From: Nitrosomonas europaea
GTDB lineage: Bacteria; Pseudomonadota; Gammaproteobacteria; Burkholderiales; Nitrosomonadaceae
Length of the DNA: 28,346 bases
Reading direction: 5' to 3'
NCBI RefSeq assembly: GCF_900167395.1
Contig: NZ_FUWK01000008.1
Location: 43,942-72,287 of the forward strand
Below are positions 4,653 to 19,573 of the stretch, piece by piece. The notes beneath the pieces were generated by a model. The model saw nothing but the letters and a program-made list of their open reading frames with translations. It had not been told where the DNA came from and made no database searches. The translations under genes and the position numbers were made by a program. Every line of letters starts with the position of its first letter. Position 1 is the first letter of the stretch.

Positions 4653-4864
4653 TTTGACCTCCGATCATAATTGGAATGTGTAAAAATCGTAGCATGAATG
4701 CTCGGGTGGATAAAAGAGCAGATATGAGTTACGGCGAGGAATAACAATTTCTGGCCGATCCCGGCGTTTGATCACTCAAATCAGGGAAAGTCACGTTTGA
4801 TTGTGTTGGCAAGTATGGTGATTGACAACTGATTTGCCATTTTTTACTAAGGGTTGATGAACAG

Positions 4865-5956
4865 GTGTTCACCGCTTTGGATTATGAGTATATGTCCCAT
4901 GCGCTGCGGCTGGCCGAAAGGGGGCTGTTTACCACCAGCCCGAATCCTCGGGTAGGGTGCGTAATCGTCAATGGCGGCAAGGTAGTTGGAACAGGGTGGC
5001 ATGAGCGGGCAGGGGAGCCACATGCAGAAATTCATGCATTACGGAAAGCAGGGGATTTGGCCAAGGGCGCTACTGTTTATGTAACACTCGAGCCTTGCAG
5101 TCATCATGGCCGTACACCACCTTGCGTCGAGGCTTTGATTCAGGCAGGGGTGTGCAAAGTAGTCATGGCGATGAATGACCCTAATCCGCATGTAAACGGT
5201 CAAGGAAAGGAATGGTTGCAGAAAGCCGGTATCGCAATACAAGCAGGTTTGCTGGCTGATCAAGCAGAGCGATTGAATATCGGATTTGTTACCCGAATGC
5301 GACATGATCGTCCATGGGTGCGGACTAAGATAGCAGCCAGCTTCGATGGCAGAACGGCTCTGAAGAATGGAAAGAGCCAGTGGATTACCAGTGAGCCGGC
5401 TCGGCGGGATGGCCATAAATGGCGAGCACGTTCATGTGCGATACTGACAGGGATCAGCTCGGTCAGGAAGGATGACCCTCAACTGACGGTGCGGTATATT
5501 ACGGTCTCCAGGCAGCCAATGCGCATAGTGGTGGATTCGAACCTGGAAACTCCCTTGCAGGCAAAGTTGCTGCAGAATGCAGATACAACTTGGATCTTCA
5601 CGGCACAGACCAGCAAAGAAAAAATACACCGACTGGAAGATACCGGTGCTCACATCGTTGTTTTGCCTGATTTGGCCGGAAAGGTTGATCTCAAAGCCAT
5701 GATGGTGAAGTTGGCCGAATTAGGTATCAATGAGCTGCTGGTTGAAGCAGGCCCGGTACTGAACGGAGCGCTGGTAACAGCTGGGCTGGTGGATGAAATC
5801 ATTTTTTATTTTGCCCCCAGCCTGTTGGGTAATTCAGCACAAGCGATGCTGGCATTGCCTGAAATCGGGGATTTATCAGAGAAGTATGATTTGCAAATAT
5901 CCGATATTCGAAAAATCGGGATGGATGTCCGTCTGATAGCAAGGTTTATGAAATGA
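4865..5956 (+). CDS. ribD: Bifunctional riboflavin biosynthesis protein RibD (pyrimidine deaminase / uracil reductase)
   Basis: The start is GTG. Deaminase zinc motifs HAEIHAL and PCSHHGRTPPC are present. A C-terminal reductase domain is present, and the length of 363 aa is typical. Confidence 0.9.
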   Translation: MFTALDYEYMSHALRLAERGLFTTSPNPRVGCVIVNGGKVVGTGWHERAGEPHAEIHALRKAGDLAKGATVYVTLEPCSHHGRTPPCVEALIQAGVCKVVMAMNDPNPHVNGQGKEWLQKAGIAIQAGLLADQAERLNIGFVTRMRHDRPWVRTKIAASFDGRTALKNGKSQWITSEPARRDGHKWRARSCAILTGISSVRKDDPQLTVRYITVSRQPMRIVVDSNLETPLQAKLLQNADTTWIFTAQTSKEKIHRLEDTGAHIVVLPDLAGKVDLKAMMVKLAELGINELLVEAGPVLNGALVTAGLVDEIIFYFAPSLLGNSAQAMLALPEIGDLSEKYDLQISDIRKIGMDVRLIARFMK

Positions 5957-6047
5957 GGTTAGAAGTGCAGGGAATGATAAAGAGAAAAGGTTTTTTGCCG
6001 TTGGCAGAAGATATTGATGGTGCCACTACTGAATCATGAGCTGAATT

Positions 6048-7253
6048 ATGCGAATTCTGCACATTCTGGATCACTCTATTCCGTTACACAGCGGTTATAC
6101 ATTTCGCACGTTGGCGATCCTGAAAGAACAGCGCGACCTGGGGTGGGAAACGTTTCATGTTACCAGCGCCAAACATACCGGCTCGGTTGCGCTGGAAGAA
6201 GAAGTCGATGGCTGGCATTTTTACAGGACGCCGGAGCATTCCCGTTTTGCCAGCAGACTGCCGATTCTGAATCAGATCGCTGTGATCAATGGTTTAGCTC
6301 GGCGGGTGGCTGATATCGTGCGAATCATCAAACCGGATCTTTTGCATGCCCATTCACCGGCACTCAATGCGATTCCCGCTCTGATCGCTGCGCGTAAAGC
6401 TTCTATACCGGTTATTTATGAGGTGCGCGCCTTCTGGGAAGATGCAGCAGTGGACCACGGCACCAGCAGTGAATGGGGTGTACGCTATCGTCTGACACGC
6501 GGGTTGGAAAATTTTGCACTTCGGCGTGTAGATGCAATCACTACGATTTGTGAAGGATTGCGAAATGACATGATCGGACGGGGTATTGCACCGGAAAAGA
6601 TTACGACTATTCCCAACGCGGTCGATATCGAGAAATTTGCTGCAAGCCGTCCGGCGAATGAATCACTCAAGGAGCAGTTTGGATTAAAGAGCAAGCGCAT
6701 CATCGGGTTTATCGGCTCTTTTTATGCTTACGAGGGGCTGGATATATTGCTACGGGCTTTGCCGATCATGCTGCTGCAGCATCCTGATTTGCGTGTATTG
6801 CTGGTCGGTGGCGGGCCACAGGATGGGCAGTTGCGGCAACTTGCCAGCCAGCTTGGTATCGGGGATAAAGTCATTTTTACCGGCCGTGTCCCACACGATA
6901 AAGTGCAGGATTACTATGATTTGATTGACGTTCTGGTTTATCCGCGCCTTTCCATGCGACTTACTGATCTCGTCACTCCTTTGAAGCCGCTGGAGGCTAT
7001 GGCACAGGGCAGAGTGCTGGCTGCTTCGGATGTGGGAGGACATCAGGAACTGATTCGTGACAACCATAACGGTATTTTGTTCAAATCCGGTGATCCGAAT
7101 TCACTGGCGCAAAAAGTCGGAGAGCTGATAAACGTGCCAGGCCGGTGGGAAGATTTGCGCAGGGCTGGACGGGAGTTTGTCGAGACTGAACGTAACTGGC
7201 GGAAAAGTGTGGCGAAATATCAGTTTATTTATAGTAATTTGCTCAATAAATAA
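6048..7253 (+). CDS. GT4-family glycosyltransferase (resembles the PEP-CTERM/exosortase-associated sugar transferase subfamily)
   Basis: The N-terminus MRILHILDHS.P..SGY matches the family. The C-terminal GT-B region has the E..G....EAMA.G.PV..S..GG..E-type motif (PLKPLEAMAQGRVLAASDVGGHQELI). The subfamily call is from memory only. Confidence 0.75.
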   Translation: MRILHILDHSIPLHSGYTFRTLAILKEQRDLGWETFHVTSAKHTGSVALEEEVDGWHFYRTPEHSRFASRLPILNQIAVINGLARRVADIVRIIKPDLLHAHSPALNAIPALIAARKASIPVIYEVRAFWEDAAVDHGTSSEWGVRYRLTRGLENFALRRVDAITTICEGLRNDMIGRGIAPEKITTIPNAVDIEKFAASRPANESLKEQFGLKSKRIIGFIGSFYAYEGLDILLRALPIMLLQHPDLRVLLVGGGPQDGQLRQLASQLGIGDKVIFTGRVPHDKVQDYYDLIDVLVYPRLSMRLTDLVTPLKPLEAMAQGRVLAASDVGGHQELIRDNHNGILFKSGDPNSLAQKVGELINVPGRWEDLRRAGREFVETERNWRKSVAKYQFIYSNLLNK

Positions 7254-7405
7254 ATGTAGACTAAATATTGGGGCTACAGATATCGCCTGAGCTTGAATTT
7301 TCTAATTAATTGCGTGTATTAACCACTTAAAACGTTTCGCTGCGTGTTGCCCAGGGCGGCTTTTTATGGTTCCTGACAAATCTAGGGCGTGGAAATTTTA
7401 ACAGT

Positions 7406-8674
7406 ATGAAACTAGCTCCCGAGGAGACTGAGAACAAAGACAAGAAAGATACTAATAATCCCGGGATTGTTGTATTTTCTTCACTTTTTCCGCACTCGGG
7501 TCAGCCTAATGCTGGTTTGTTCATTCGTGAACGTATGTTTCGGGTGGGAAAACATCTTCCGCTCGTGGTGGTGGCACCCGTACCCTGGTTTCCATTTCAG
7601 AAAATTCTTCGCAGATGGCGCCCTCATTTCAGACCGGATGCTCCTTATATGGAGCTTCAGGAAAATATTGAGGTTCTCCATCCACGTTTTTTTTCCATTC
7701 CGGGATTTTTTAAGTTTCTGGATGGTTTTTTCATGGCATTAGGCAGCTTGCCTGTTTTGTGGCGGCTCAAGCGACGTTTCGATTTTAAGATTATTGATGC
7801 GCATTTTGCCTATCCGGACGGTTACGCTGCGAGCCTTCTGGGGAGATGGTTCCGGGTTCCTGTCACGATTACCTTGCGAGGCACGGAGGTACGGCTTTCC
7901 CACAGATTTTTATATCGAGATCTTATGCGTTCAGCCATGATACGTGCTGCGAAGATTTTTTCAGTATCGGATTCTTTGAAACAGGTAGCAGTGGCAATCG
8001 GAATCCAGGAAAGCAAAATACTCGTGGTGGGTAATGGTGTGGATCTTGATAAGTTTTGTTGTATTGATCGGTCTGAAGCGCGTAAGAGCCTGGAAATACC
8101 GGAAGATATACCGATATTGATATCGGTGGGTGGGCTTTGTGAGCGCAAGGGGTTTCATCGTGTCATCGCGTGTCTGCCTGACTTGATAAGTACTTACCCT
8201 GGTATTCAATTTTTGATAATCGGTGGTGCAAGTGCCGAGGGTGACTGGACTGAGCGTTTGCAACAGCAGGTTTCTGAATCGGGGTTTGAGAAAAATGTTC
8301 GTTTTCTGGGTGTCATGCCACCAGATCAGTTGAAGATTCCGCTTTCTGCTGCTGATTTATTTGTGCTTGCTACAAGAAATGAGGGATGGGCTAATGTATT
8401 TCTCGAAGCAATGGCATGTGGTTTGCCGGTGGTGACTACTGACGTAGGCGGAAATGCTGAAGTAGTCTGTCGTTCGGAACTGGGTAAACTGGTTCCTTTT
8501 AATGATCAGCAGGCACTTTGCCAGGCAATTGCCAATGCACTGGAAGTAAATTGGGATCGAGAAAAAATAATCATGTACGCTCACGCAAACTCGTGGGATC
8601 AGAGAGTAGCTGTCCTTGTAGAAGAATTTGTGAAGATCACCTGCCAATCTGAGTTGGCGGAACAATATCGTTAA
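7406..8674 (+). CDS. GT4-family glycosyltransferase
   Basis: Motifs are VVFSSLFP....PNAGLFIRER at the N-terminus and NEGWANVFLEAMACGLPVVTTDVGGNAEVV (the GT4 EX7E-type region). Confidence 0.75.
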   Translation: MKLAPEETENKDKKDTNNPGIVVFSSLFPHSGQPNAGLFIRERMFRVGKHLPLVVVAPVPWFPFQKILRRWRPHFRPDAPYMELQENIEVLHPRFFSIPGFFKFLDGFFMALGSLPVLWRLKRRFDFKIIDAHFAYPDGYAASLLGRWFRVPVTITLRGTEVRLSHRFLYRDLMRSAMIRAAKIFSVSDSLKQVAVAIGIQESKILVVGNGVDLDKFCCIDRSEARKSLEIPEDIPILISVGGLCERKGFHRVIACLPDLISTYPGIQFLIIGGASAEGDWTERLQQQVSESGFEKNVRFLGVMPPDQLKIPLSAADLFVLATRNEGWANVFLEAMACGLPVVTTDVGGNAEVVCRSELGKLVPFNDQQALCQAIANALEVNWDREKIIMYAHANSWDQRVAVLVEEFVKITCQSELAEQYR

Positions 8675-8676
8675 CC

Positions 8677-10032
8677 ATGGCTGGTATTTATACACATTTG
8701 ATATCCGGATTCCTGTTCCCGCTTCATGAACACCTCAAGCGGCACGCCAGTGTCAATGTGCGTAAATCCATGGAGCAGACTCAATGGTTTTCTCCTGAAA
8801 AGATCGTGCAGTTACAGACTGAAAAACTGCGTCAGTTGCTCATTCATATAAACACACATGTTCCCTATTACCGCACGCTGTTTGCTGAGTTGGGTTTTCA
8901 ACCGGAGGAAGCTGGTTCACTGGCTGATTTGCAATACCTGCCTTTTCTCGATAAATCAATCATTCGTACACATCTGGAGGAACTCAAATCTGATCAGGCG
9001 CGAGGGCTCGTTCGTTTCAATACGGGAGGATCCAGTGGCGAACCGCTGGTTTTTTTTATCGGCAAGGAACGTGTCAGCCACGATATTGCCGCAAAGTGGC
9101 GAGCTACACGCTGGTGGGGCGTGGATATAGGTGATCCCGAAATCGTTGTCTGGGGTTCTCCGATCGAATTGGGTGCGCAGGATACGTTGCGTTCATGGCG
9201 GGATCATTTGTTTCGCAGCAGATTATTGCCCGCATTTGAAATGTCCGACCAGAAGCTCGATGATTTTCTTGATACGATCCGCAGGTTTCATCCCAAAATG
9301 CTGTTCGGTTATCCCTCGGCTTTGTCGCATATAGCGAAATATGCTGATAAATCAGGTATTAAGATGTCCAATTTGGGAATTCAGGTGGCTTTCGTCACTT
9401 CGGAACGGCTGTATGATGATCAGCGCAGACAAATCAGTGACACTTTCGGCTGTCCGGTTGCAAATGGTTATGGGGGGCGTGATGCCGGGTTCATTGCTCA
9501 TGAATGTCCTGCAGGCGGAATGCATATCACCGCTGAGGATATCATCGTTGAAATTGTCGATTCTAACGGCCATCCCCTTCCATACGGAGAATCAGGCGAA
9601 ATTGTGGTGACTCATCTGGCAAGCAGAGATTTCCCTTTCATTCGTTATCGTACCGGGGATATTGGTATTCTGGATGACAGAACATGTGATTGCGGGCGGG
9701 GATTACCGCTGCTTCGGGAGATACAGGGCCGCAGCACCGATTTTGTCGTTGCGCAGAATGGTACAGTCATGCACGGGCTGGCACTGATTTATATTTTGCG
9801 AGACATGCCGGAAGTAAAAGTTTTCAAAATCATCCAGGAGAGCCTGGATTTCACCCGAGTTCAGGTCGTTGCAGAGACCGGCTTGCATCCGTCGCAGATC
9901 AGCCGGATCACCGAATCGTTTCAAACCAGACTGGGTCGGGATGTAAAGATCAAGGTGGAACAGGTATCTGAAATTCCGGCTGAGAAATCAGGCAAGTTTC
10001 GTTATGTGGTCAGTAAAGTGGCCGGGGTTTGA
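8677..10032 (+). CDS. Phenylacetate-CoA ligase / coenzyme F390 synthetase-like adenylate-forming enzyme (CapK-like)
   Basis: The P-loop-like motif TGGSSGEP, together with YGGRDAG and YRTGD, matches the PaaK/F390 family. The gene starts 3 nt after the upstream glycosyltransferase stop. Confidence 0.7.
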   Translation: MAGIYTHLISGFLFPLHEHLKRHASVNVRKSMEQTQWFSPEKIVQLQTEKLRQLLIHINTHVPYYRTLFAELGFQPEEAGSLADLQYLPFLDKSIIRTHLEELKSDQARGLVRFNTGGSSGEPLVFFIGKERVSHDIAAKWRATRWWGVDIGDPEIVVWGSPIELGAQDTLRSWRDHLFRSRLLPAFEMSDQKLDDFLDTIRRFHPKMLFGYPSALSHIAKYADKSGIKMSNLGIQVAFVTSERLYDDQRRQISDTFGCPVANGYGGRDAGFIAHECPAGGMHITAEDIIVEIVDSNGHPLPYGESGEIVVTHLASRDFPFIRYRTGDIGILDDRTCDCGRGLPLLREIQGRSTDFVVAQNGTVMHGLALIYILRDMPEVKVFKIIQESLDFTRVQVVAETGLHPSQISRITESFQTRLGRDVKIKVEQVSEIPAEKSGKFRYVVSKVAGV

Positions 10033-10033
10033 A

Positions 10034-10654
10034 TTAATCAGTCGATTGCACAAAAGGTATAGGTACTCCCATCCATAACAGTGCAACTACTATCAGCGCG
10101 ATTCCCACACCGGTAGTTCCCACGATCATCCCAGCAATGATGGTCAGACCATCCTTGCTGAGTAACCCCAATGACATGATGAGGATTCCCAGGCCGGGAA
10201 GAAAATTGATCAGGGGGACCGGCAGTGCAATGGAAATCGAGAAAATGAATGAAAAGAGGCCGATGATACGTTCCCAGGCATGTACACTGATGTAAGTCAG
10301 CCGCGGATGCATGTGGCTTTCAATTTTGCGTAACCATGGTGCTGCCTTGGTGATTAATTTGTCCAGTGTTCCCCTTTTTATGGTTTTTTTTGTCAACCAT
10401 TCTGGAATCCACGGCGCTTTCATGCCACATATCATTTGGATCGAGAAAATAAACAGCGGAATGGCAAAAACAGTAGTGTACCCAGGTGGTGCGGGAACAG
10501 GCAGACAGATCGGTAAAGTAGCAATGGCGAGCAGCACGGCAAAGCCACGCTCGTGCAATGAGTTTTTGATTTCGTCCACACTGATCACTGCATTGGTGTT
10601 TTGTACGACGATCAGTTGCAATAGTTCGGATGTATTTTTTTCCTTGTTCTCCAC
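10034..10654 (-). CDS. exoD: Exopolysaccharide synthesis protein ExoD family (membrane)
   Basis: ERGFAVLLAIATLPICLPVPAPPGYTTVFAIPL is the typical ExoD N-terminal signature. Several TM segments are present. Its stop lies 1 nt from the convergent upstream gene stop. Confidence 0.7.
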   Translation of the reverse strand: MENKEKNTSELLQLIVVQNTNAVISVDEIKNSLHERGFAVLLAIATLPICLPVPAPPGYTTVFAIPLFIFSIQMICGMKAPWIPEWLTKKTIKRGTLDKLITKAAPWLRKIESHMHPRLTYISVHAWERIIGLFSFIFSISIALPVPLINFLPGLGILIMSLGLLSKDGLTIIAGMIVGTTGVGIALIVVALLWMGVPIPFVQSTD

Positions 10655-11411: not shown

Positions 11412-11498
11412 CCGGATTGCGGTAACAACCGTGAGATCCAACATCCCAGTCATCGGGCGGATTGTCTCGGCCATTCCATTTCTGCCAGGCCAGGGTTG

Positions 11499-12656
11499 AT
11501 GAAAATATCTCCGAGTCGTCAAGTGAAAGGGGAAATAGAAATTATCCCGGTTTCAGGCTTTCGTGGAATTGGAAAATTCATTGATGTTCCCTGGCGACTC
11601 TATGCGGATGACCCTTTGTGGGTACCGCCTCTCCGGCTGGAGCGACGATTGCATCTCTCCAGGTTCAATCCCTATTTCAGGCATGCACAATGGCAAGGAT
11701 GGATTGCCTGTCGTGATAATCAGCCGGTTGGCAGAATCAGTGCACAGATAGATGAACTGTACCAGCAACGCTACGGGACGGATACCGGGCATTTCGGGAT
11801 GCTGGAATCCATTCAGGATGAAGCAGTTTTCAGTCGGCTGATACAAGTAGCCGAAAGCTGGTTGGTTGAACGGGGAGTACGTCAGATCAGCGGGCCGTTC
11901 AATTTTTCTATCAATCAGGAATGTGGCTTACTGGTTCAGGGGTTTGATACACCTCCCGTTTTCATGATGCCTTATTCACCGGAGTGGTATACCAGCCTGC
12001 TGGAACAAAACGGCTATCAGCCTTGCAAGGATTTACTGGCCTACTGGCTGGTAACGGATTTTGACCCGCCTCCTGCCATGCAGGCGATCGATCGTAAGTA
12101 TCGGCATCAGATCCGAATCAGGCCACTGCAACGCAATCGATTCAATGAAGAAATAGAAACCATGCGAGACATATTTAATGATGCCTGGTCTGATAACTGG
12201 GGATTCGTTCCCTTTACGCAGGAAGAATTTGCCGAGCTGGGCAGTTCTTTGCGCTGGCTGGTCCCGGATGAATTTATCCAGATAGCGGAAATAGACGGGA
12301 GGCCCGTCGCCTTCATGGCGGTACTGCCGAATCTGAATGAGGTACTCCCGGCACTGAATGGAAAACTTCTTCCTCTTGGCTGGCTTCACCTGATCAATAA
12401 ACTGAAATCCGCTTCAATTACTACCGGTCGGGTTCCTCTGATGGGTGTCCGCAAGCAATTTCACCATACTCTTGTCGGAATAGCACTGGCGTTCAAAGTC
12501 ATCGATGCTCCCAGAAAAATGGTTAAATCCCGTGGTATCGGGCATGTCGAATTATCCTGGATACTTGAAGACAATCAATCCATGCGTGCGATTCTGGAAA
12601 AAATTGGCGGCAGGGAGTACAAGCGCTATCGTATTTACGATAAGACGCTGGCGTGA
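11499..12656 (+). CDS. GNAT-like acyltransferase-fold protein (large about 385-aa type)
   Basis: ATG at 11499; the listed ORF begins at TTG 11496. This is a long conserved-looking ORF. The C-terminal half (RPVAFMAVLPN...GIALAFKVI...SWILEDNQSM) looks like an acetyltransferase core. The assignment is by recollection. Confidence 0.5.
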   Translation: MKISPSRQVKGEIEIIPVSGFRGIGKFIDVPWRLYADDPLWVPPLRLERRLHLSRFNPYFRHAQWQGWIACRDNQPVGRISAQIDELYQQRYGTDTGHFGMLESIQDEAVFSRLIQVAESWLVERGVRQISGPFNFSINQECGLLVQGFDTPPVFMMPYSPEWYTSLLEQNGYQPCKDLLAYWLVTDFDPPPAMQAIDRKYRHQIRIRPLQRNRFNEEIETMRDIFNDAWSDNWGFVPFTQEEFAELGSSLRWLVPDEFIQIAEIDGRPVAFMAVLPNLNEVLPALNGKLLPLGWLHLINKLKSASITTGRVPLMGVRKQFHHTLVGIALAFKVIDAPRKMVKSRGIGHVELSWILEDNQSMRAILEKIGGREYKRYRIYDKTLA

Positions 12657-12705: not shown

Positions 12706-13524
12706 ATGAGCAATAACGATCAGTTTGCCGCCCTGGTACTGGCAGCCGACCGGGGCAGCCAGGATTCCGTGGCACGGTATGCAGGAACGGTATGCAAGGC
12801 TTATGCTCCTGTTTGTGGTAAACCTATGGTCATTCGTGTGCTCAATGCTCTGAATGATTGCCATAAAATAAAATCGGCCCTTTTATGCGGCCCGCCGGAA
12901 TCACTGCTTTCAGCTTGCGAGGAACTCGAACAGCGTATCGATACCAGGCAGGTGGACTGGATGGAAAATCTGGATTCACCAGCTCGCAGCGCTGCTCACG
13001 GGCTTTCACGTATCGACTCGCAACAACCGGTTTTATTGACTACAGCGGATCATGCACTGCTTACCTCGGAAATCGTGGAATATTTTTTGCAGGTTTCCAG
13101 TAATCTGGAGTGTGACGCGGTTGTCGGGGTCATCAGATATGAAACCCTGCAAGCCCGGTATGGTGATACCCGGCGTACGGTGATACGGTTGCAGGATGGG
13201 AATTTTTGTGGCTGTAATCTATTCGCATTCAATAATGTACGCGGGCGTACGCTGGTGGATTTCTGGCAGCAGGCGGAAGCATTGCGCAAGCGTCCGTGGA
13301 AGCTGATCAGCCGGGTACTGGGCTGGCAGGCTGTGTGGTCATACCTGCTCGGACGTTTGACGCTCGACCAGGCATTGCAGAAAATTTCCGGGAAAACAGG
13401 CGTTCGGGTGTGCCCGGTAATTTTGCCCTTTCCTGATGCCGGCATCGATGTCGATAAAGTAGAAGATCTGCAACTGGTGGAATCCATCCTGATCCGGTCC
13501 GATTCAACACGCCCCTTGATGTAA
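12706..13524 (+). CDS. MobA-like NTP-transferase family protein (nucleotidyltransferase)
   Basis: ATG at 12706 avoids overlap with the upstream gene; the listed ORF starts at 12505. The N-terminal AALVLAADRGS is a degenerate LAGG.S.R nucleotide-binding loop. TTADHALL and the C-terminal IDVD..EDL resemble the NTP_transf_3 family. Confidence 0.55.
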   Translation: MSNNDQFAALVLAADRGSQDSVARYAGTVCKAYAPVCGKPMVIRVLNALNDCHKIKSALLCGPPESLLSACEELEQRIDTRQVDWMENLDSPARSAAHGLSRIDSQQPVLLTTADHALLTSEIVEYFLQVSSNLECDAVVGVIRYETLQARYGDTRRTVIRLQDGNFCGCNLFAFNNVRGRTLVDFWQQAEALRKRPWKLISRVLGWQAVWSYLLGRLTLDQALQKISGKTGVRVCPVILPFPDAGIDVDKVEDLQLVESILIRSDSTRPLM

Positions 13525-13542: not shown

Positions 13543-14619
13543 ATGAAAATCATTGAAAGGTACATCACACGGGAACTGCTGTTTCCTTTCATCGTGGTGA
13601 CGGTCATCCTGATCGGGCTTTTCGTCAGTTTCAGTGTTGCACGGTTTTTGACCAGTGCCGTGACTGAAACGCTTGGTACTGCCGCCATGTTCAAGCTGGT
13701 CGGATTGAAAACCATCATTGCGCTGGAAGTGCTGGTTCCCATTGCGTTCTATGTGGCGGTCATCTATGGTTTGAGCCGGATGAACCGGGATCAGGAAATC
13801 AATGTACTGCGCACCGCCGGATACGGGGATAACCGGATCATCCGTACCGTTTTCGTGATTGCTCTGCCGATTGCCATTCTCAGCGGGATTCTTTCCGTTT
13901 ATGCCCGTCCGTGGGCTTATGCGGAAAGCTATATCATGGATGCGCAGGCTGAAGCTGAATTGAATACCAACCGGTTCCAGCCTGGAAGGTTTTATGGCAG
14001 TGAAAAAAGCGGTCGAGTGATTTTTATCCGGGGTAAAGATGATCTGGAAAAACGTATGGAAGGCGTTTTCCACTACATCAGAACGACTGAAGATAGAGAA
14101 ATCATTATTTCCAGGGAAGGTTATCAGCAGCCGATGACTGCAGAACAGTGGCCGCATATCGAACTGCGGGAAGGCCAGATCTATCGTCTCAGCTTTGATA
14201 CTGTCAAAGACAGCGCCATTCGTTTTGAGAAGATGATCTATTTCAATGAAAACGATCAGGCTCAGAACTATCGGCGCAAGGCGGCATCTACTCGTTCCTT
14301 ATGGGATTCTGAAGAACCGCGTGAAATTGCAGAGTTGCAGTGGCGGCTTTCACGGCCTGTCGCAACTGTTCTGCTTGCGCTGATCGCCGTTTCTTTTACC
14401 CGCACCGCACCACGCAAAGATAAAACAGACAGAACCTTTCTTGTCGCTGCACTGGTCTTTGCTGTTTATTACAATCTCAGCGGATTAGCCAAGACTTGGG
14501 TGGAGCAGGGCGTGGTAGCCGCCATGCCCGGAGTCTGGTGGGTATATGGATTGCTTATCATAATCGTTATGCTGCGCCTTCCCGAGCTCAGATCTTTATT
14601 GCCTGCAGGAAAACAGTGA
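13543..14619 (+). CDS. lptF: LPS export ABC transporter permease LptF
   Basis: MKIIERYITRELLFPF is the canonical LptF/LptG (YjgP/YjgQ) N-terminus. The topology is TM, periplasmic domain, TM. It pairs with the next gene. Confidence 0.85.
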   Translation: MKIIERYITRELLFPFIVVTVILIGLFVSFSVARFLTSAVTETLGTAAMFKLVGLKTIIALEVLVPIAFYVAVIYGLSRMNRDQEINVLRTAGYGDNRIIRTVFVIALPIAILSGILSVYARPWAYAESYIMDAQAEAELNTNRFQPGRFYGSEKSGRVIFIRGKDDLEKRMEGVFHYIRTTEDREIIISREGYQQPMTAEQWPHIELREGQIYRLSFDTVKDSAIRFEKMIYFNENDQAQNYRRKAASTRSLWDSEEPREIAELQWRLSRPVATVLLALIAVSFTRTAPRKDKTDRTFLVAALVFAVYYNLSGLAKTWVEQGVVAAMPGVWWVYGLLIIIVMLRLPELRSLLPAGKQ

Positions 14620-15683
14620 AGATCTGTCATCGTTATATCGCCTGGCAGGTTTTGACGGGAATGGTTATCGCTACTGCCATCCTGTTACCTCTGTTCAGTT
14701 TTTTTGATTTGCTGGATCAGCTTGATGACGTAGGGAAGGGGACATATACCACCTGGGATGCTTTTCTGTATACCGTCATGCTGATGCCCCGCAGATTCAT
14801 CCAGATTGCACCGTTCATCGCACTGCTGGGGACGGTGGGTGCGCTGGGTGCGCTGGCAGTCAATCTGGAACTGGTGGCGATGCGGGTGGCAGGGCTTTCT
14901 CCCTTGATGATCGGCCTTGCTCCGGTTGGAATTGGAGGATTACTCATTGCCTCGACGATAGCACTGGAGTATTTTGTGGCTCCTCAGTTTCAGCAGCAGG
15001 CAACGATATTGCGGGCAGTTGCACTGGAACAGGGGGCTGAACTGGGTAAGGGGCTCGGTATCTGGACACGAAACGAGCGGAATATATTGCGTATTGGTGA
15101 GATGTTGCATAAAGGGCGTGCTACGGATATCGAAGTCATCCATTTTGATGGAGAGGGATCCATGACCGCTCATGTCCATGCATGGTATGCAGATATTTTT
15201 GATGAGAGTTTATGGAAGCTGCATGACGTCACGATACGTACATTCTCCCCGGATCGCATCACTTCCAGGAAGGCACACATCCTTCAGTGGCATTCGTTTC
15301 TGGGCCCGGACGATATTGCGACACTGACCAAGTCGCCGGAAAGTCTGACGCCAATAGAGCTGGTGAAACATGCTGAATTTTTGAGGGCGACCGGCCAGAA
15401 AGCGGATGCCTACGTTATGGCGTTGTGGCGCAAGGTTGGCGGGGCGATCATGACAATTGCGATGATCCTGGTCGCCATTCCCTTTATCTTCGGCTCTGTA
15501 CGTGAAGGATTGGGGGGTAAACTGATTCTGGCTGCGCTCATGGGGATCAGTATTTACCTGTTTGATCAGATCATTGCCAATATCGGACTGGTATTCCAAT
15601 TGAACCCGATTGTCGTTTCGGTTGTACCCGGAATGGTTCTGATTGCTGTCGCAGCACATTGGCTGTTACGGCGCACTTTTTGA
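14616..15683 (+). CDS. lptG: LPS export ABC transporter permease LptG
   Basis: A GTG start at 14616 overlaps the lptF stop (GTGA). VKICHRYIAWQVLTGMVIATAILLPLFSFFDLLDQL is typical of LptG. The listed ORF start at 14496 would overlap lptF by 124 nt. Confidence 0.85.
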   Translation: MKICHRYIAWQVLTGMVIATAILLPLFSFFDLLDQLDDVGKGTYTTWDAFLYTVMLMPRRFIQIAPFIALLGTVGALGALAVNLELVAMRVAGLSPLMIGLAPVGIGGLLIASTIALEYFVAPQFQQQATILRAVALEQGAELGKGLGIWTRNERNILRIGEMLHKGRATDIEVIHFDGEGSMTAHVHAWYADIFDESLWKLHDVTIRTFSPDRITSRKAHILQWHSFLGPDDIATLTKSPESLTPIELVKHAEFLRATGQKADAYVMALWRKVGGAIMTIAMILVAIPFIFGSVREGLGGKLILAALMGISIYLFDQIIANIGLVFQLNPIVVSVVPGMVLIAVAAHWLLRRTF

Positions 15684-15684
15684 G

Positions 15685-16920
15685 ATGAATATGACTACTG
15701 CTTTCTTCGTTCACATTATCGGCAACAGTAAAACCAGTCTGTGGGGGATGGATGGGCGTACGCGCCTCGAGCGGATGCTGGGAACGATCAAGACGGTTGC
15801 AGTGGTGAAAGAGGTATCACAATTGACCGAAACGGATCCCGTGTTGCTGCTGCGTGCTGACTATCTGTTCGATAGCAGAGTGATCAGTGCGCTGATGGCA
15901 TTGCATGAACCGGCCGTACTCGTGGCTCCTATGGATGAGACTCCGGTTGCGATTCTGATTGACGGGAAAAATGCCGCTGCGATGTGTGAAGTACTGAACG
16001 AAAAAAGACCGGCACCTGACGATCTTCCCGTTCGTACCTTGAAAGACCTCCCGATTCAGGTACAGCAGAATCTGAAGAAGAAGGATCCGCCCTATGTATT
16101 GCCGATCCGGCGTTGTAACCAGGCCGAGCTTGAATCAGAGCTGTTTGCCGCATCCTATAAGGGTGTAACCGATCTGGTCACCAAATGGCTATGGCCCTGG
16201 CCGGCGTTTATGGTAACGCGCCTGTGTGTTCGACTGGGTCTGAAGCCCAATCATGTGACGCTGCTCAGTCTGGTTCTGGCGGTGCTGGCAGGCGTGGCAT
16301 TCTGGTATGGCGCGTTTGGTATCGGCCTGATCATGGCGTGGCTGATGACTTTTCTGGATACGGTCGATGGCAAGCTGGCGCGTGTCACGCTGACATCAAG
16401 CAAGCTGGGCGATGTGCTGGATCACGGTCTGGATATCATTCATCCGCCGTTGTGGTATCTGGCCTGGGGGGTGGGCCTCATGGCCACCGCCACACCTGTA
16501 GCGGATCTCGAATTGCTGGTCTGGCTGATGTTCATTGGCTATGTGGGGGGCCGTCTTTGTGAAGGCGCTTTCCAGTTCTGGCTGGCATCTTTTGATATTT
16601 TCATCTGGCGTAAAGTCGATTCGTTCCATCGTTTGATTACCGCACGGCGCAATCCGAATCTGATCCTGCTGACTGCCGGCTGGATGGCAGATCGGCCGGA
16701 TATCGGATTTATCTTGGTTGTATTGTGGCATCTGCTTTCAACTCTGTTTCTCGCTTACAGATTGTTCGCTGCCTGGCAAAGCCGGTCACAGGATGGTGTG
16801 CTTCATTCCTGGATGGAGAACATCGATCCCGTTCGGGACAGGCAGCAGCTTGCCGTCAGAATATTTACCCGGTTACCTTTTCCCCAACGGTATGTCAATC
16901 CCGCCGCAGATAACGAGTAA
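15685..16920 (+). CDS. CDP-alcohol phosphatidyltransferase family protein with an N-terminal extra domain of about 170 aa
   Basis: ATG at 15685 lies 1 nt after the lptG stop. The signature DTVDGKLARVTLTSSKLGDVLDHGLD matches D.(2)DG.(2)AR.(8)G.(3)D.(3)D. Multiple TM helices follow. The soluble N-terminal domain resembles a degenerate nucleotidyltransferase fold. Confidence 0.8.
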   Translation: MNMTTAFFVHIIGNSKTSLWGMDGRTRLERMLGTIKTVAVVKEVSQLTETDPVLLLRADYLFDSRVISALMALHEPAVLVAPMDETPVAILIDGKNAAAMCEVLNEKRPAPDDLPVRTLKDLPIQVQQNLKKKDPPYVLPIRRCNQAELESELFAASYKGVTDLVTKWLWPWPAFMVTRLCVRLGLKPNHVTLLSLVLAVLAGVAFWYGAFGIGLIMAWLMTFLDTVDGKLARVTLTSSKLGDVLDHGLDIIHPPLWYLAWGVGLMATATPVADLELLVWLMFIGYVGGRLCEGAFQFWLASFDIFIWRKVDSFHRLITARRNPNLILLTAGWMADRPDIGFILVVLWHLLSTLFLAYRLFAAWQSRSQDGVLHSWMENIDPVRDRQQLAVRIFTRLPFPQRYVNPAADNE

Positions 16921-17893
16921 CCCGGCGGTGGATCTGATCCCTGCCAGGATTGGCCTGATTTACAACCCGCTGGGAGGCTGGTTTCGCAAGCATACTGCGC
17001 GGATGCAGAGTCTTCTGGCAACATTACCGGAAATTAGACAGATTCAGGCAACCGATCAGATCGAGTTTGAACGTGCTGTCACTGTCGTAGTTGAAGCGAA
17101 GATCGGGTGGCTGATCGTTGTGGGGGGAGATGGCACTCTGCAAGGGGTAATGAGTTGTCTGTTTGAGTGCCTGCCACCGGACAGGTGGCCGGAAATCACC
17201 ATCGTGCCCGCTGGAACGACCAACATGACCGCACTGGATCTGGGAATGAATGGGCAAGCCGAGCAGATTTTGTCCAGAATCAGGCAACATCTGCAACGAC
17301 CCGGTGACATGAAACAGGTACGAAGACCAGTGCTGCGTATCGAGCAGACCGGTATGAGGAATGTGTATGGAATGATGCTCGGTCTCGGCCTGATTGCGCG
17401 TGGCGTAAAATTTTCACGCAGTCAGATCAAGCAATTGGGAATGACCGGTAACATTTTTACTGTCGTGATCGTATTGCGTTCGCTAATAGGCATGTTTCTG
17501 GGGCGTCCGCAAGCCGAATGGGCTCCGGTACGTGTTGCCCAAATAGATGAAACAGGGGTGTTGAGCGAGAAAGTGTATCTGTTCGCACTCATCAGTGCGC
17601 TGGAGAAGCTATTGCTCGGCATTCGCCCCTATTGGGGGCAGGAACCGGCACCGCTGCATGCGACATTTATCGGGCAACACAGTCGGCGGTTCTGGCGCGC
17701 TATCTGGCCCCTGATCGCAGGGCGTGGTCACCATTTGCAGAAGGAAGACGGCTATACCAGCTATAACACGGCTTCGATCGAGCTGTGGCTGGATGATGAA
17801 TATATCGTGGATGGTGAGCTCTACTATGCTTCCAGCCGGAATGGTCCGCTGAAAATTACAGCCGATGGCCCGATTCTGTTCCGCATTTTATGA
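16892..17893 (+). CDS. Diacylglycerol-kinase catalytic-domain (DAGK_cat / YegS-like) lipid kinase
   Basis: IGLIYNPLGG ... LIVVGGDGTLQGV ... IVPAGTTNMTA match the DAGK_cat motifs. The start is uncertain: ATG 16892 overlaps the upstream gene by 29 nt, and GTG 16928 is an alternative. Confidence 0.7.
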   Translation: MSIPPQITSNPAVDLIPARIGLIYNPLGGWFRKHTARMQSLLATLPEIRQIQATDQIEFERAVTVVVEAKIGWLIVVGGDGTLQGVMSCLFECLPPDRWPEITIVPAGTTNMTALDLGMNGQAEQILSRIRQHLQRPGDMKQVRRPVLRIEQTGMRNVYGMMLGLGLIARGVKFSRSQIKQLGMTGNIFTVVIVLRSLIGMFLGRPQAEWAPVRVAQIDETGVLSEKVYLFALISALEKLLLGIRPYWGQEPAPLHATFIGQHSRRFWRAIWPLIAGRGHHLQKEDGYTSYNTASIELWLDDEYIVDGELYYASSRNGPLKITADGPILFRIL

Positions 17894-17907: not shown

Positions 17908-18873
17908 ATGGGTACCGCTGATTTACCAAATATCCTTGATCTTCTGATACAGGAAATTGCAATTCAGGATGCTCGACCTGTACATCCGGCATTTCAGGTT
18001 TTTACCGATGCATTGAGACAGCGTTTCGGAGAGGCACTGGATGCAGTCGTTTTATATGGCTCCTGTCTGCATACTTCTGATCTGACTGAGGGTATTGCCG
18101 ATTTTTATGTGCTGGTCAGTGATTACCGGCTGGCTTATTCCGGTCGTCTGCTGGCCGGTCTGAATGCCTGGCTGCCGCCGAATGTCTTTTATCTGGAAGT
18201 TCCCGCTGCAGCCGGTGTGATGCGTGCAAAGTATGCGGTTATTTCGACGGCAGACTTTGAACGTGGCGCCCGGCAGTGGTTTCATCCTTATATCTGGGCA
18301 CGTTTTGCACAGCCGGCCAGATTGCTTTATGCCCGCGACGATCAGACCGGGAAGCGTGTTCATACTGCGCAGGCGAGTGCCGTACTCAAATTCATCAGTA
18401 CGACGCTGCCTGTACTTGAATCCGGACCCAGTGACTTGGAGATGATCTGGGCATCCGGTTTGATGCTGACTTATGCCGCCGAGCTGCGTGCAGAGCGTGA
18501 AGCGCGCGCGCGTCATCTGGTGCGGATTGATCCGGAAATTTACAGCCGGCTGACTGCGGCGGCCATGCCTGCCTTGATTCCGCTGCTGAGTTTACAGGCT
18601 GACGGACGATATCATATCGGGCCGATCACACCACTGAAAAGGTTGAGTGCACGTATCCACTGGCGTTTGCGGCGCTGGCAGGGCCGAGTGCTGTCGGTTC
18701 TGCGGTTGAGCAAGGCGACGATGACTTTCCGGGATTGTCTGGATTATGCTGCCTGGAAAATTGAACGCCATACCGGCATCAAAGTGGAAATTACGCCTAT
18801 GCTGAGGCGTCATCCGATTCTCTGGGGTTATAAAGTCATGTGGCAATTACTGCGGCGTGGTGTGTTGCGTTGA
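17908..18873 (+). CDS. Tam41/Mmp37-like protein (candidate CdsA-independent phosphatidate cytidylyltransferase)
   Basis: Motif order matches yeast Tam41 as I recall it. VLYGSCLH corresponds to FGYGSGVF, ADFYVLV to IDIILGV, and NVFYLEV...AKYAVIS..DF to GVYFNPF...KYGVVS..L. W..PYIWARFAQPARLL corresponds to W...YLAGRLQKPVKIL. This is not verified by search. Confidence 0.45.
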   Translation: MGTADLPNILDLLIQEIAIQDARPVHPAFQVFTDALRQRFGEALDAVVLYGSCLHTSDLTEGIADFYVLVSDYRLAYSGRLLAGLNAWLPPNVFYLEVPAAAGVMRAKYAVISTADFERGARQWFHPYIWARFAQPARLLYARDDQTGKRVHTAQASAVLKFISTTLPVLESGPSDLEMIWASGLMLTYAAELRAEREARARHLVRIDPEIYSRLTAAAMPALIPLLSLQADGRYHIGPITPLKRLSARIHWRLRRWQGRVLSVLRLSKATMTFRDCLDYAAWKIERHTGIKVEITPMLRRHPILWGYKVMWQLLRRGVLR

Positions 18874-18925: not shown

Positions 18926-19573
18926 ATGAAGTATTCAATCCGGTTCTTTGCCGTAATTTTTGCGATTTTCCTAACGGCCTGTTCCACCATGTATTACAGT
19001 GGACTCGAAAAAATCGGTATCCCGAAGCGGGATGTGCTGGTTTATCGGGTGGAGAAAGCAAGAGATACGCAGGAAGAAACCCGAGAGCAATTCAAATCTG
19101 CTCTGGAGCAGTTTTCTGCTGCTACCAATTTCAAAGGAGGGGATCTTGAGGGGATTTATAAAAAACTGAACGGTGAGTATGAGGCGAGTGTGAACAAAGC
19201 AAAGGAAGTCAGAAGTCGTATCGAGGATATCGAAAACGTCTCAGCTGCATTATTCAGAGAGTGGGAGCAGGAAATCACGCAATATTCAAATCCGGCATTG
19301 AAACGGAGCAGTCAGGACAGGCTGACTGAGACCAGGTCGTATTACAAGCAGCTCATTGCGGCCATGAAAAACGCAGAATCGAGGATACAGCCCGTATTGA
19401 CCGTTTTCAACGATCAGGTCATGTACCTCAAGCATAATCTCAATGCCCGGGCAATCGCCTCATTGAAAGGTGAATTGAAAACATTGCAATCGAATGTTTC
19501 GACTCTGGTTGCTGCAATGGAAAAATCCATCAACGAAGCTAATACATTTATCAGCAATATGGAGAAAAACTAG
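18926..19573 (+). CDS. DUF2959-family lipoprotein
   Basis: ATG at 18926 with GGGGAG upstream. The lipobox is FLTAC. YYSGLEKIGIPKRDVLVYRVEKARDTQEE..EQFKSALEQF matches the DUF2959 N-terminal pattern. The remainder is coiled-coil-rich. Confidence 0.65.
   Translation: MKYSIRFFAVIFAIFLTACSTMYYSGLEKIGIPKRDVLVYRVEKARDTQEETREQFKSALEQFSAATNFKGGDLEGIYKKLNGEYEASVNKAKEVRSRIEDIENVSAALFREWEQEITQYSNPALKRSSQDRLTETRSYYKQLIAAMKNAESRIQPVLTVFNDQVMYLKHNLNARAIASLKGELKTLQSNVSTLVAAMEKSINEANTFISNMEKN

Follow-up and report, generated by a model that had tools for sequence, protein, structure and literature searches.

The window analysed here, a stretch of 28,346 nt, carries a block of seven genes on its forward strand (Table 1). 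Their order comprises a bCerS-like gene, a MobA-like nucleotidyltransferase gene, lptF, lptG, a cpgA-like gene, a ceramide-kinase-like gene and a cpgC-like gene, and matches that of Neut_1100-1106. The longest open reading frame of the MobA/CofC-like gene begins at 12505, with a likely start near 12709. Directly upstream of the cpgC-like gene lies a gene for a DAGK_cat kinase (E 9e-20), which is preceded by one for a CDP-alcohol phosphatidyltransferase (E 5.5e-8), so that the two neighbours named in an earlier note on this DNA are indeed in place. The kinase has its best PDB matches in BmrU and DgkB-type kinases. The cpgA-like protein combines a CDP-alcohol phosphotransferase domain, which harbors the complete DxxDGxxARx8GxxxDxxxD motif and is closest to phosphatidylinositol-phosphate synthases, with a degenerate N-terminal domain of the AF2299-type, cytidylyltransferase-like kind, for which neither Pfam nor NCBIfam gave a match. 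Within the 28,346-nt window, spt and the remaining ceramide-synthesis genes (acpR, cerR, aasR) were not found, and the bCerS-like gene is present.

Table 1. Genes of the seven-gene block and features within the cpgC-like gene (positions of the window; residue numbers of the 321-aa protein)
Feature	Position	Strand	Basis or remark
GNAT-like 386-aa protein (bCerS-like)	11496..12656	+	Neut_1100 position (orthologue of ceramide synthase CC_1154)
MobA/CofC-like NTP transferase	12709..13524	+	Neut_1101 position (orthologue of CC_1153)
lptF	13543..14619	+	above NCBIfam equivalog cut-off; Neut_1102 position
lptG	14616..15683	+	above NCBIfam equivalog cut-off; Neut_1103 position
cpgA-like protein	15685..16920	+	Neut_1104 position (orthologue of CC_1159)
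cpgB-like lipid kinase (DAGK_cat, GGDG motif)	16892..17893, start codon approximate	+	Neut_1105 position (orthologue of CC_1160)
cpgC-like gene, 321-aa Tam41/Mmp37-fold nucleotidyltransferase (predicted)	17908..18873	+	identical to N. europaea CAD84716.1
NTase core: G51-S52 of LYGS and single carboxylate D65	18058..18102	+	G51 and D65 invariant, S52 conserved in at least 90% (134 representatives)
K108 of KYAVIS	18229..18231	+	aligns with S. pombe Tam41 K156 and human TAMM41 K109 (CTP-binding); invariant
R132-F-A-Q135-P136	18301..18315	+	aligns with Tam41 R-F-Q-K-P (human R133, K136, P137)
Y189-x-x-E192-L-R194-x-E196, helical (winged-helix-equivalent) domain	18472..18495	+	aligns with S. pombe Tam41 Y-L-G-D-I-R...E
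Basic Trp-rich C-terminal helices (aa 241-321, net +15)	18628..18870	+	composition, model; compared with Tam41 C-terminal amphipathic helix

The cpgC-like reading frame opens with ATG and runs for 321 codons. It is separated from the stop codon of the kinase gene by a gap of 15 nt, and a Shine-Dalgarno-like AAGGA is located 8-9 nt 5' of the start. This is a genuine gene and not a chance reading frame, because it has thousands of homologues and conserved motif residues: at E<=1e-3, 3834 homologues were found among 90% clusters, and the family comprises 1368 clusters at 50% identity, 496 of them with E<=1e-30. Two reading frames on the opposite strand within the gene (18052-18516 and 18592-18846) were without support and were discounted.

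No transmembrane segment is predicted in the protein, and since its highest Kyte-Doolittle mean over 19 residues is as low as 1.36, the label "soluble" given to it by the earlier note is fair, although the C-terminus is strongly basic. The last 81 residues include 19 K/R and 5 W and have a net charge of +15. In Tam41, a basic amphipathic helix at the C-terminus binds the membrane (PMC7018664), and this peripheral-membrane-binding feature is matched by composition alone (aa 241-321 helical, +15, 5 Trp, no transmembrane segment). By this analogy, the basic Trp-rich helices are probably the membrane-binding part of the protein.

The earlier note had seen the characteristic blocks of Tam41 in order along this reading frame, and all of them could be located in the 321-aa protein: LYGS (aa 49-52), ADFYVLV (64-70), NVFYLEV (92-98), KYAVIS (108-113), DF (116-117) and WFHPYIWARFAQP (124-136). 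In database searches, the relationship emerges with the family rather than with the single sequence. Searched on its own, the protein gave no match in the PDB and none in NCBIfam, and with the Pfam model PF09139 it scored 12.3 bits (E 0.1) against a cut-off of 24. Its relative P0134 exceeds this curated cut-off with 34.3 bits, and 29 of 134 diverse representatives match PF09139 individually at E<=0.01 (best 5.7e-13). The Pfam check proposed beforehand thus came out positive for relatives but not for the protein alone. A profile built from 26 relatives placed S. pombe Tam41 at the top of its PDB matches (E 0.0067), as did one built from the 134 representatives (E 4.2e-6), positions 89-220 of which align with residues 137-265 of the S. 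pombe Tam41 chain (6IG2). A search for eukaryotic Tam41 sequences with a 71-residue fragment of 6IG2 retrieved one 92-aa protein only.

Structure comparison gave the same ranking. The AlphaFold2 model of the protein (pLDDT 83.5, pTM 0.84) was compared with the PDB by Foldseek, and the five best matches were all Tam41 structures (S. pombe 6IG4 and 6IG2; Firmicutes 7ECD), with E values of 9e-8 to 5e-7, TM scores of 0.50-0.61 and 14-16% identity over about 280 aligned columns. The next structural family was that of ANT(4')/kanamycin nucleotidyltransferase, at E of 1.5e-4 or weaker and TM scores of about 0.3. Tam41 thus lies far ahead of the KNTase/ANT enzymes in both measures, and therefore the protein does not resolve as a generic KNTase-like nucleotidyltransferase, the outcome that the earlier note had named as refuting its proposal. 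As judged from profiles and the predicted structure, homology to Tam41 is clear at the family level, in agreement with the earlier note.

The conserved residues were examined across the 134 representatives. Invariant positions are G51, D65, P91, K108, R132, Q135, E192, R194, E196, Y280 and K284; P136 is invariant or nearly so, and Y189 is conserved in at least 90%. The canonical [DE]h[DE] signature of the NTase fold is replaced by D65-F-Y and D65 is the one carboxylate. The single carboxylate left from [DE]h[DE]h is a hallmark of the MMP37/Tam41 group, which is unusual among NTase-fold proteins (PMC2794190; PMC11646218). Residue correspondences were derived from the HMMER alignment to 6IG2 combined with the human and S. 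pombe equivalences of PMC8935507, which also gives K109, R133 and K136 as the CTP-binding residues of human TAMM41 together with their S. pombe counterparts. Two of these three basic residues are kept in the cpgC-like family (K109 as K108 and R133 as R132), and P137 is retained as P136. The third, K136, is replaced by an invariant Gln135, and nucleotide binding may therefore differ. In addition, a C-terminal motif at aa 279-288, D-Y-A-A-W-K-I-E-R-H (DYxxWKIxRH), is invariant in the family and absent from the Tam41 crystal constructs.

The protein has the same sequence as CAD84716.1 from Nitrosomonas europaea ATCC 19718, which UniRef lists as "Phosphatidate cytidylyltransferase". Its full-length identity to Neut_1106 of N. 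eutropha C91 (ABI59361.1) is 82%. On a contig encoding exactly the Neut_1106 protein, the genes follow one another as in the window: AMP-ligase, ExoD (minus strand), a 159-aa reading frame, a GNAT-like 385-aa protein, NTP_transf_3, LptF, LptG, CDP-OH transferase, DAGK_cat kinase, the Tam41-like gene, DUF2959, DciA (minus strand), SecA and cytochrome bc1. For N. eutropha, orthologues of Caulobacter genes have been assigned (Olea-Ozuna et al., PLoS Pathog 2024, PMC11324152). These are Neut_1100 for the bacterial ceramide synthase CC_1154, Neut_1101 for the MobA/CofC-like nucleotidyltransferase CC_1153, Neut_1102 for CC_1156 (LptF2), Neut_1103 for CC_1155 (LptG2), Neut_1104 for CC_1159 (CpgA), Neut_1105 for the ceramide kinase CC_1160 (CpgB) and Neut_1106 for CC_1161 (CpgC; 32% identity, E 2e-38, 86% coverage; S2D Table of PMC11324152). 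The link from the protein to CC_1161 therefore has two steps: that to Neut_1106 was computed here, like the fold, the conserved residues and the synteny, and that from Neut_1106 to CC_1161 is taken from PMC11324152, the genetics of Caulobacter likewise coming from the literature. The same work noted the Tam41/Mmp37 InterPro domain (IPR015222) in CC_1161 homologues, placed the ceramide-synthesis genes of N. eutropha at Neut_0458-0461 (spt being Neut_0461), and predicted this organism to be capable of synthesising ceramide phosphoglycerate (CPG) and CPG2. A report of sphingolipids demonstrated chemically in Nitrosomonas was not found in the cited literature. The literature already describes the cluster, the Tam41 domain and the orthologues in Nitrosomonas. 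The finding is therefore a known one, and the arrangement, collinear with Neut_1100-1106, is hardly the little-studied one that it had been taken for.

In Caulobacter, the genes have been ordered by mutant phenotypes. Deletion of cpgB abolishes ceramide phosphate, CPG and CPG2 (PMC9393093; confirmed in PMC11324152), and the ceramide kinase activity of CpgB has been shown biochemically (cited in PMC11324152 and JBC 2025). Deletion of cpgC (CC_1161/CCNA_01219) leaves ceramide and ceramide phosphate in place and abolishes CPG and CPG2, and deletion of cpgA abolishes only CPG2, CpgA not being needed for CPG (both PMC9393093; PMC11324152). CpgD (CC_1152) makes CDP-glycerate, and CpgA is proposed to act on CPG with CDP-glycerate (JBC 2025). 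CpgC is stated to convert ceramide-1-phosphate to CPG "through a yet unidentified mechanism" (JBC 2025). CPG and CPG2, anionic sphingolipids of the outer membrane, allow Caulobacter to survive without lipid A, are required for deoxycholate resistance and are proposed as a colistin target (PMC11324152; PMC9393093).

The family extends over a broad range of bacteria. A genome scan detected at least 595 loci encoding cpgC-like relatives. The best 80 of them are distributed over Nitrosomonadaceae, many gammaproteobacterial MAGs, Competibacteraceae, Thiotrichaceae, Desulfobacterales, Syntrophobacterales, Nitrospirales, Hyphomicrobiales and Gemmatimonadaceae. Gene context was counted among these best 80 loci wherever enough flanking sequence was available. 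A kinase gene is located directly upstream of the cpgC-like gene in 64 of 76 loci, and a CpgA-like gene (49 of 72), lptG (60 of 67), a bCerS-like gene (48 of 64) and a MobA-like nucleotidyltransferase gene (50 of 64) are found at the majority as well. Gamma, delta and Nitrospirales loci contain an extra metallophosphoesterase (compare CC_1158) and an IPCT/GlmU-type nucleotidyltransferase (compare CpgD). Two gene fusions were also detected, one of the kinase with CpgC (P0121) and one of a CpgC-like protein with a MobA/CofC-like nucleotidyltransferase (P0228). Many environmental Gram-negative bacteria, ammonia oxidisers among them, seem to carry the cpg gene set. There, the cpg genes are wedged against what are apparently standard lptF and lptG genes.

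Taken together, we favour, with moderate confidence, the reading that the gene encodes a CpgC orthologue, a peripheral-membrane nucleotidyltransferase of the Tam41/Mmp37 fold acting in the pathway of the CPG/CPG2 head group. The substrate, nucleotide and product that we infer would make it most likely a CTP:ceramide-1-phosphate cytidylyltransferase. In such a pathway, the upstream CpgB-like kinase would phosphorylate ceramide to ceramide-1-phosphate. The cpgC-like enzyme, held at the membrane by the basic helices of its C-terminus, would bind CTP-Mg between the NTase and helical domains by means of D65, K108 and R132. It would then move CMP to the lipid phosphate, with the chemistry that Tam41 applies to phosphatidate, yielding CDP-ceramide and PPi. 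A phosphotransferase would subsequently swap CMP for glycerate or phosphoglycerate to give CPG, and the CpgA-like CDP-alcohol phosphotransferase would add a second phosphoglycerate from the donor CDP-glycerate. This scheme has three weak points. As CpgA is dispensable for CPG in Caulobacter, the enzyme consuming CDP-ceramide has no assigned gene; one CTP-binding position carries Gln in place of Lys throughout the family; and the cited literature yielded no chemical evidence for sphingolipids in Nitrosomonas. CDP-ceramide as a metabolite was not found reported there either.

The strongest alternative is that no free CDP-lipid is formed at all. The Tam41 scaffold would then join glycerate or phosphoglycerate directly to ceramide-1-phosphate in one step (Zik et al.), or another nucleotide or an NDP-glycerate donor would be used. 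The genetics indeed give the whole step from ceramide-1-phosphate to CPG to CpgC, with no second enzyme known and CpgA dispensable. Moreover, the change from Lys to Gln and the invariant C-terminal motif would permit an altered reaction, and the fusion P0228 with a MobA/CofC-like nucleotidyltransferase is also in keeping with it. However, energetics speak against joining the two directly when neither is activated (PMC11324152), and the invariance of the catalytic Asp and of the Lys and Arg that bind the triphosphate in Tam41 fits the use of an NTP. As for an NDP-glycerate donor, the cpgD (CC_1152) and CC_1153 mutants both still produce CPG (PMC11324152; JBC 2025), and NDP-glycerate from either enzyme alone is thus not required. 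We therefore regard this alternative as unlikely.

A less probable reading, and one we consider distinctly doubtful, is that of the earlier note, in which the protein is a CdsA-independent soluble phosphatidate cytidylyltransferase. With a diacylglycerol kinase as supplier and the phosphatidyltransferase as consumer, it would form a salvage module from DAG via PA and CDP-DAG to phospholipid. This reading is consistent with the Tam41 fold and the conserved CTP-site residues, with the UniRef name, with the resemblance of the adjacent CDP-alcohol transferase to phosphatidylinositol-phosphate synthases, and with BmrU and DgkB-type enzymes as the top PDB matches of the kinase. In addition, the summary given in PMC11646218 describes a Firmicutes Tam41 homologue as reported to make CDP-DAG (Kimura 2022). 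Against it, loss of the Caulobacter orthologue leads to a build-up of ceramide phosphate and a specific lack of ceramide phosphoglycerate, and the Caulobacter counterpart of the kinase phosphorylates ceramide. For the counterpart of the CDP-alcohol transferase, the proposed reaction is one of CDP-glycerate with CPG and does not involve CDP-DAG (JBC 2025). The ceramide-synthase-like gene, moreover, is linked at three quarters of the loci scored for it. As the locus is collinear with Neut_1100-1106 and given the phenotypes of the Caulobacter mutants, ceramide-1-phosphate is the more likely lipid substrate than phosphatidate. The orthologous genes thus point to ceramide phosphoglycerate synthesis instead of the CdsA-like role first suggested, and the database name "Phosphatidate cytidylyltransferase" is probably wrong on the substrate.

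Three further ideas were rejected, as each fits the Caulobacter genetics and the bCerS linkage less well. One was a salvage route from DAG via PA to CDP-DAG tied to LPS modification. Another was phosphatidylinositol-phosphate synthesis, with a PIPS-like transferase and the metallophosphoesterase as PIP phosphatase; an inositol-phosphate synthase was seen neither in the window nor in the inspected loci. The third was an analogue of the ynbA/ynbB pair of E. coli, which is tied to the glycolipid MPIase. The connection of YnbB with MPIase is mentioned in PMC7018664.

A non-catalytic role in the pathway, as a lipid binder or scaffold built on a degenerate NTase fold, is very improbable: the protein has one of the three canonical NTase carboxylates and the MMP37 group was once predicted to be inactive owing to the missing ones (PMC2794190), but Tam41 is catalytically active with just the same one carboxylate (PMC7018664; PMC11646218), and the equivalents of its active site are invariant across the 134 representatives.

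Returning to the cytidylyltransferase reading, its extension to the entire family would make the CpgC proteins CTP:ceramide-1-phosphate cytidylyltransferases that provide the missing activation step by forming CDP-ceramide, in a pathway spread far more widely than Caulobacterales and Sphingomonadales and usually encoded beside lptFG. We consider this generalisation evenly balanced between being right and being wrong. A suggestion that CC_1161 might produce an NDP-activated ceramide is already in print (PMC11324152), and novelty would lie only in demonstrating it. The principal gap left in the CPG pathway concerns the chemistry of the CpgC step. The evidence from fold and residues backs the treatment of CpgC as a Tam41-like lipid-phosphate cytidylyltransferase, which is directly testable, and together with the breadth of the family and the persistent linkage to lptFG it sharpens this hypothesis.

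Compared with known systems, the locus is closest to that of CpgC in Caulobacter. Both have cpgB, cpgA, lptF/G, bCerS and the MobA-like nucleotidyltransferase gene as neighbours and apparently share the Tam41/Mmp37 InterPro domain, although the identity of the two CpgC proteins is only about 32%. The Caulobacter cluster additionally includes spt, acpR, cerR, aasR, cpgD, lptC2 and a phosphoesterase, which in Nitrosomonas are located elsewhere or absent. Furthermore, lptF and lptG of the window score as standard LptF/LptG and not as divergent second copies. The cpgA-like protein resembles the AF2299 and IPCT-DIPPS-type enzymes in that a cytoplasmic cytidylyltransferase-like N-terminal domain is joined to a membrane domain of the CDP-alcohol phosphotransferase type, whose signature motif is complete. 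Unlike these, it lacks a recognisable NTP-transferase glycine-rich loop in this domain and shows WGLxGRxRLxR instead.

Among nucleotidyltransferases, the ANT(4')/KNTase and AadA enzymes have the same succession of NTase and helical domains as the cpgC-like protein but match it much more weakly in structure. These enzymes carry the full NTase carboxylate set. [quoted passage not shown] The nearest relatives in structure are Tam41/TAMM41 (6IG2, 6IG4) and the Firmicutes Tam41 (7ECD), with which the protein shares the NTase and helical domains, the single catalytic Asp, the CTP-binding Lys and Arg, the GRFxxP-type motif, a basic C-terminal region and the lack of transmembrane helices. It differs from them in the Gln at the position of K136 and in the invariant C-terminal DYxxWKIxRH, and the genetic roles are distinct, that of CpgC lying in sphingolipid synthesis and that of Tam41 in cardiolipin/glycerophospholipid synthesis.

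Natural fusions were found in two homologues of the CpgC-like protein, P0121 (662 aa), in which the CpgC-like domain is joined to a DAGK_cat kinase, and P0228 (594 aa), in which it is joined to a MobA-like NTP transferase. These protein architectures support a functional coupling of the CpgC-like protein with the kinase and with the MobA-like enzyme, both of which are enzyme types encoded by its neighbours. In eight gammaproteobacterial loci (L056, L058, L061, L062, L065, L066, L073 and L077), the CpgC-like gene directly follows the CpgA-like gene or lptG and the kinase gene between them is missing; here, the kinase must be encoded elsewhere or be absent.

The gene lptG is located upstream of the CpgC-like gene in several phyla (60 of the 67 loci with enough flanking sequence among the best 80 of 595). 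The lptF and lptG products of the window score 345.6 and 310.5, above the respective NCBIfam equivalog cut-offs of 230 and 240. The copies in the Caulobacter cluster are termed second versions, LptF2/G2. At the other end, the DUF2959 lipoprotein gene keeps its position solely in Nitrosomonas-type loci (n = 21 among the best 80 of 595). A gene of the PF05118 Asp/Arg beta-hydroxylase family adjoins the CpgC-like gene downstream in L048, L058 and 11 other gammaproteobacterial loci. The family includes the lipid hydroxylases LpxO and OlsC, and the product of this gene may act as a hydroxylase on the lipid. CofD- and CofE-like genes lie nearby on the opposite strand in L058. Upstream of the bCerS-like gene, the AMP ligase matches the NCBIfam DVU_1553 family with a score under the cut-off.

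Features in the window and in related loci
Feature	Location	Position	Evidence
Two GT4 glycosyltransferases, PaaK/F390-synthetase-like AMP ligase, ExoD (minus strand)	window 6048-10654	just upstream of bCerS-like gene	
lptF and lptG	window 13543-15683	within sphingolipid head-group cluster	NCBIfam equivalogs
CpgA-like N-terminal region (~190 residues)	window 15685-16260		
Family motif (aa 279-288)	window 18742-18771	C-terminal in CpgC-like protein	
DUF2959 lipoprotein gene	window 18926-19573	immediately downstream of CpgC-like gene	E 1.8e-83
PF05118 family gene	L048 7968-8738	directly downstream of CpgC-like gene	
PF05118 family gene	L058 8155-8886	directly downstream of CpgC-like gene	

The N-terminal region of the CpgA-like protein gave no Pfam or NCBIfam matches and aligns weakly to the cytidylyltransferase-like domain of AF2299. 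As a conserved WGLxGRxRLxR occupies the usual position of the nucleotide-binding loop, the domain looks degenerate. One Nitrospirales MAG locus (L072) harbors two paralogous CpgA-like CDP-alcohol phosphotransferases (4734-5963 and 8173-9414).

Within the CpgC-like family, conservation is strongest in a C-terminal motif, [DS]Y[AIV][ALV]WK[IL]xRH. The region holding this motif is absent from the truncated constructs used for the Tam41 crystal structures.
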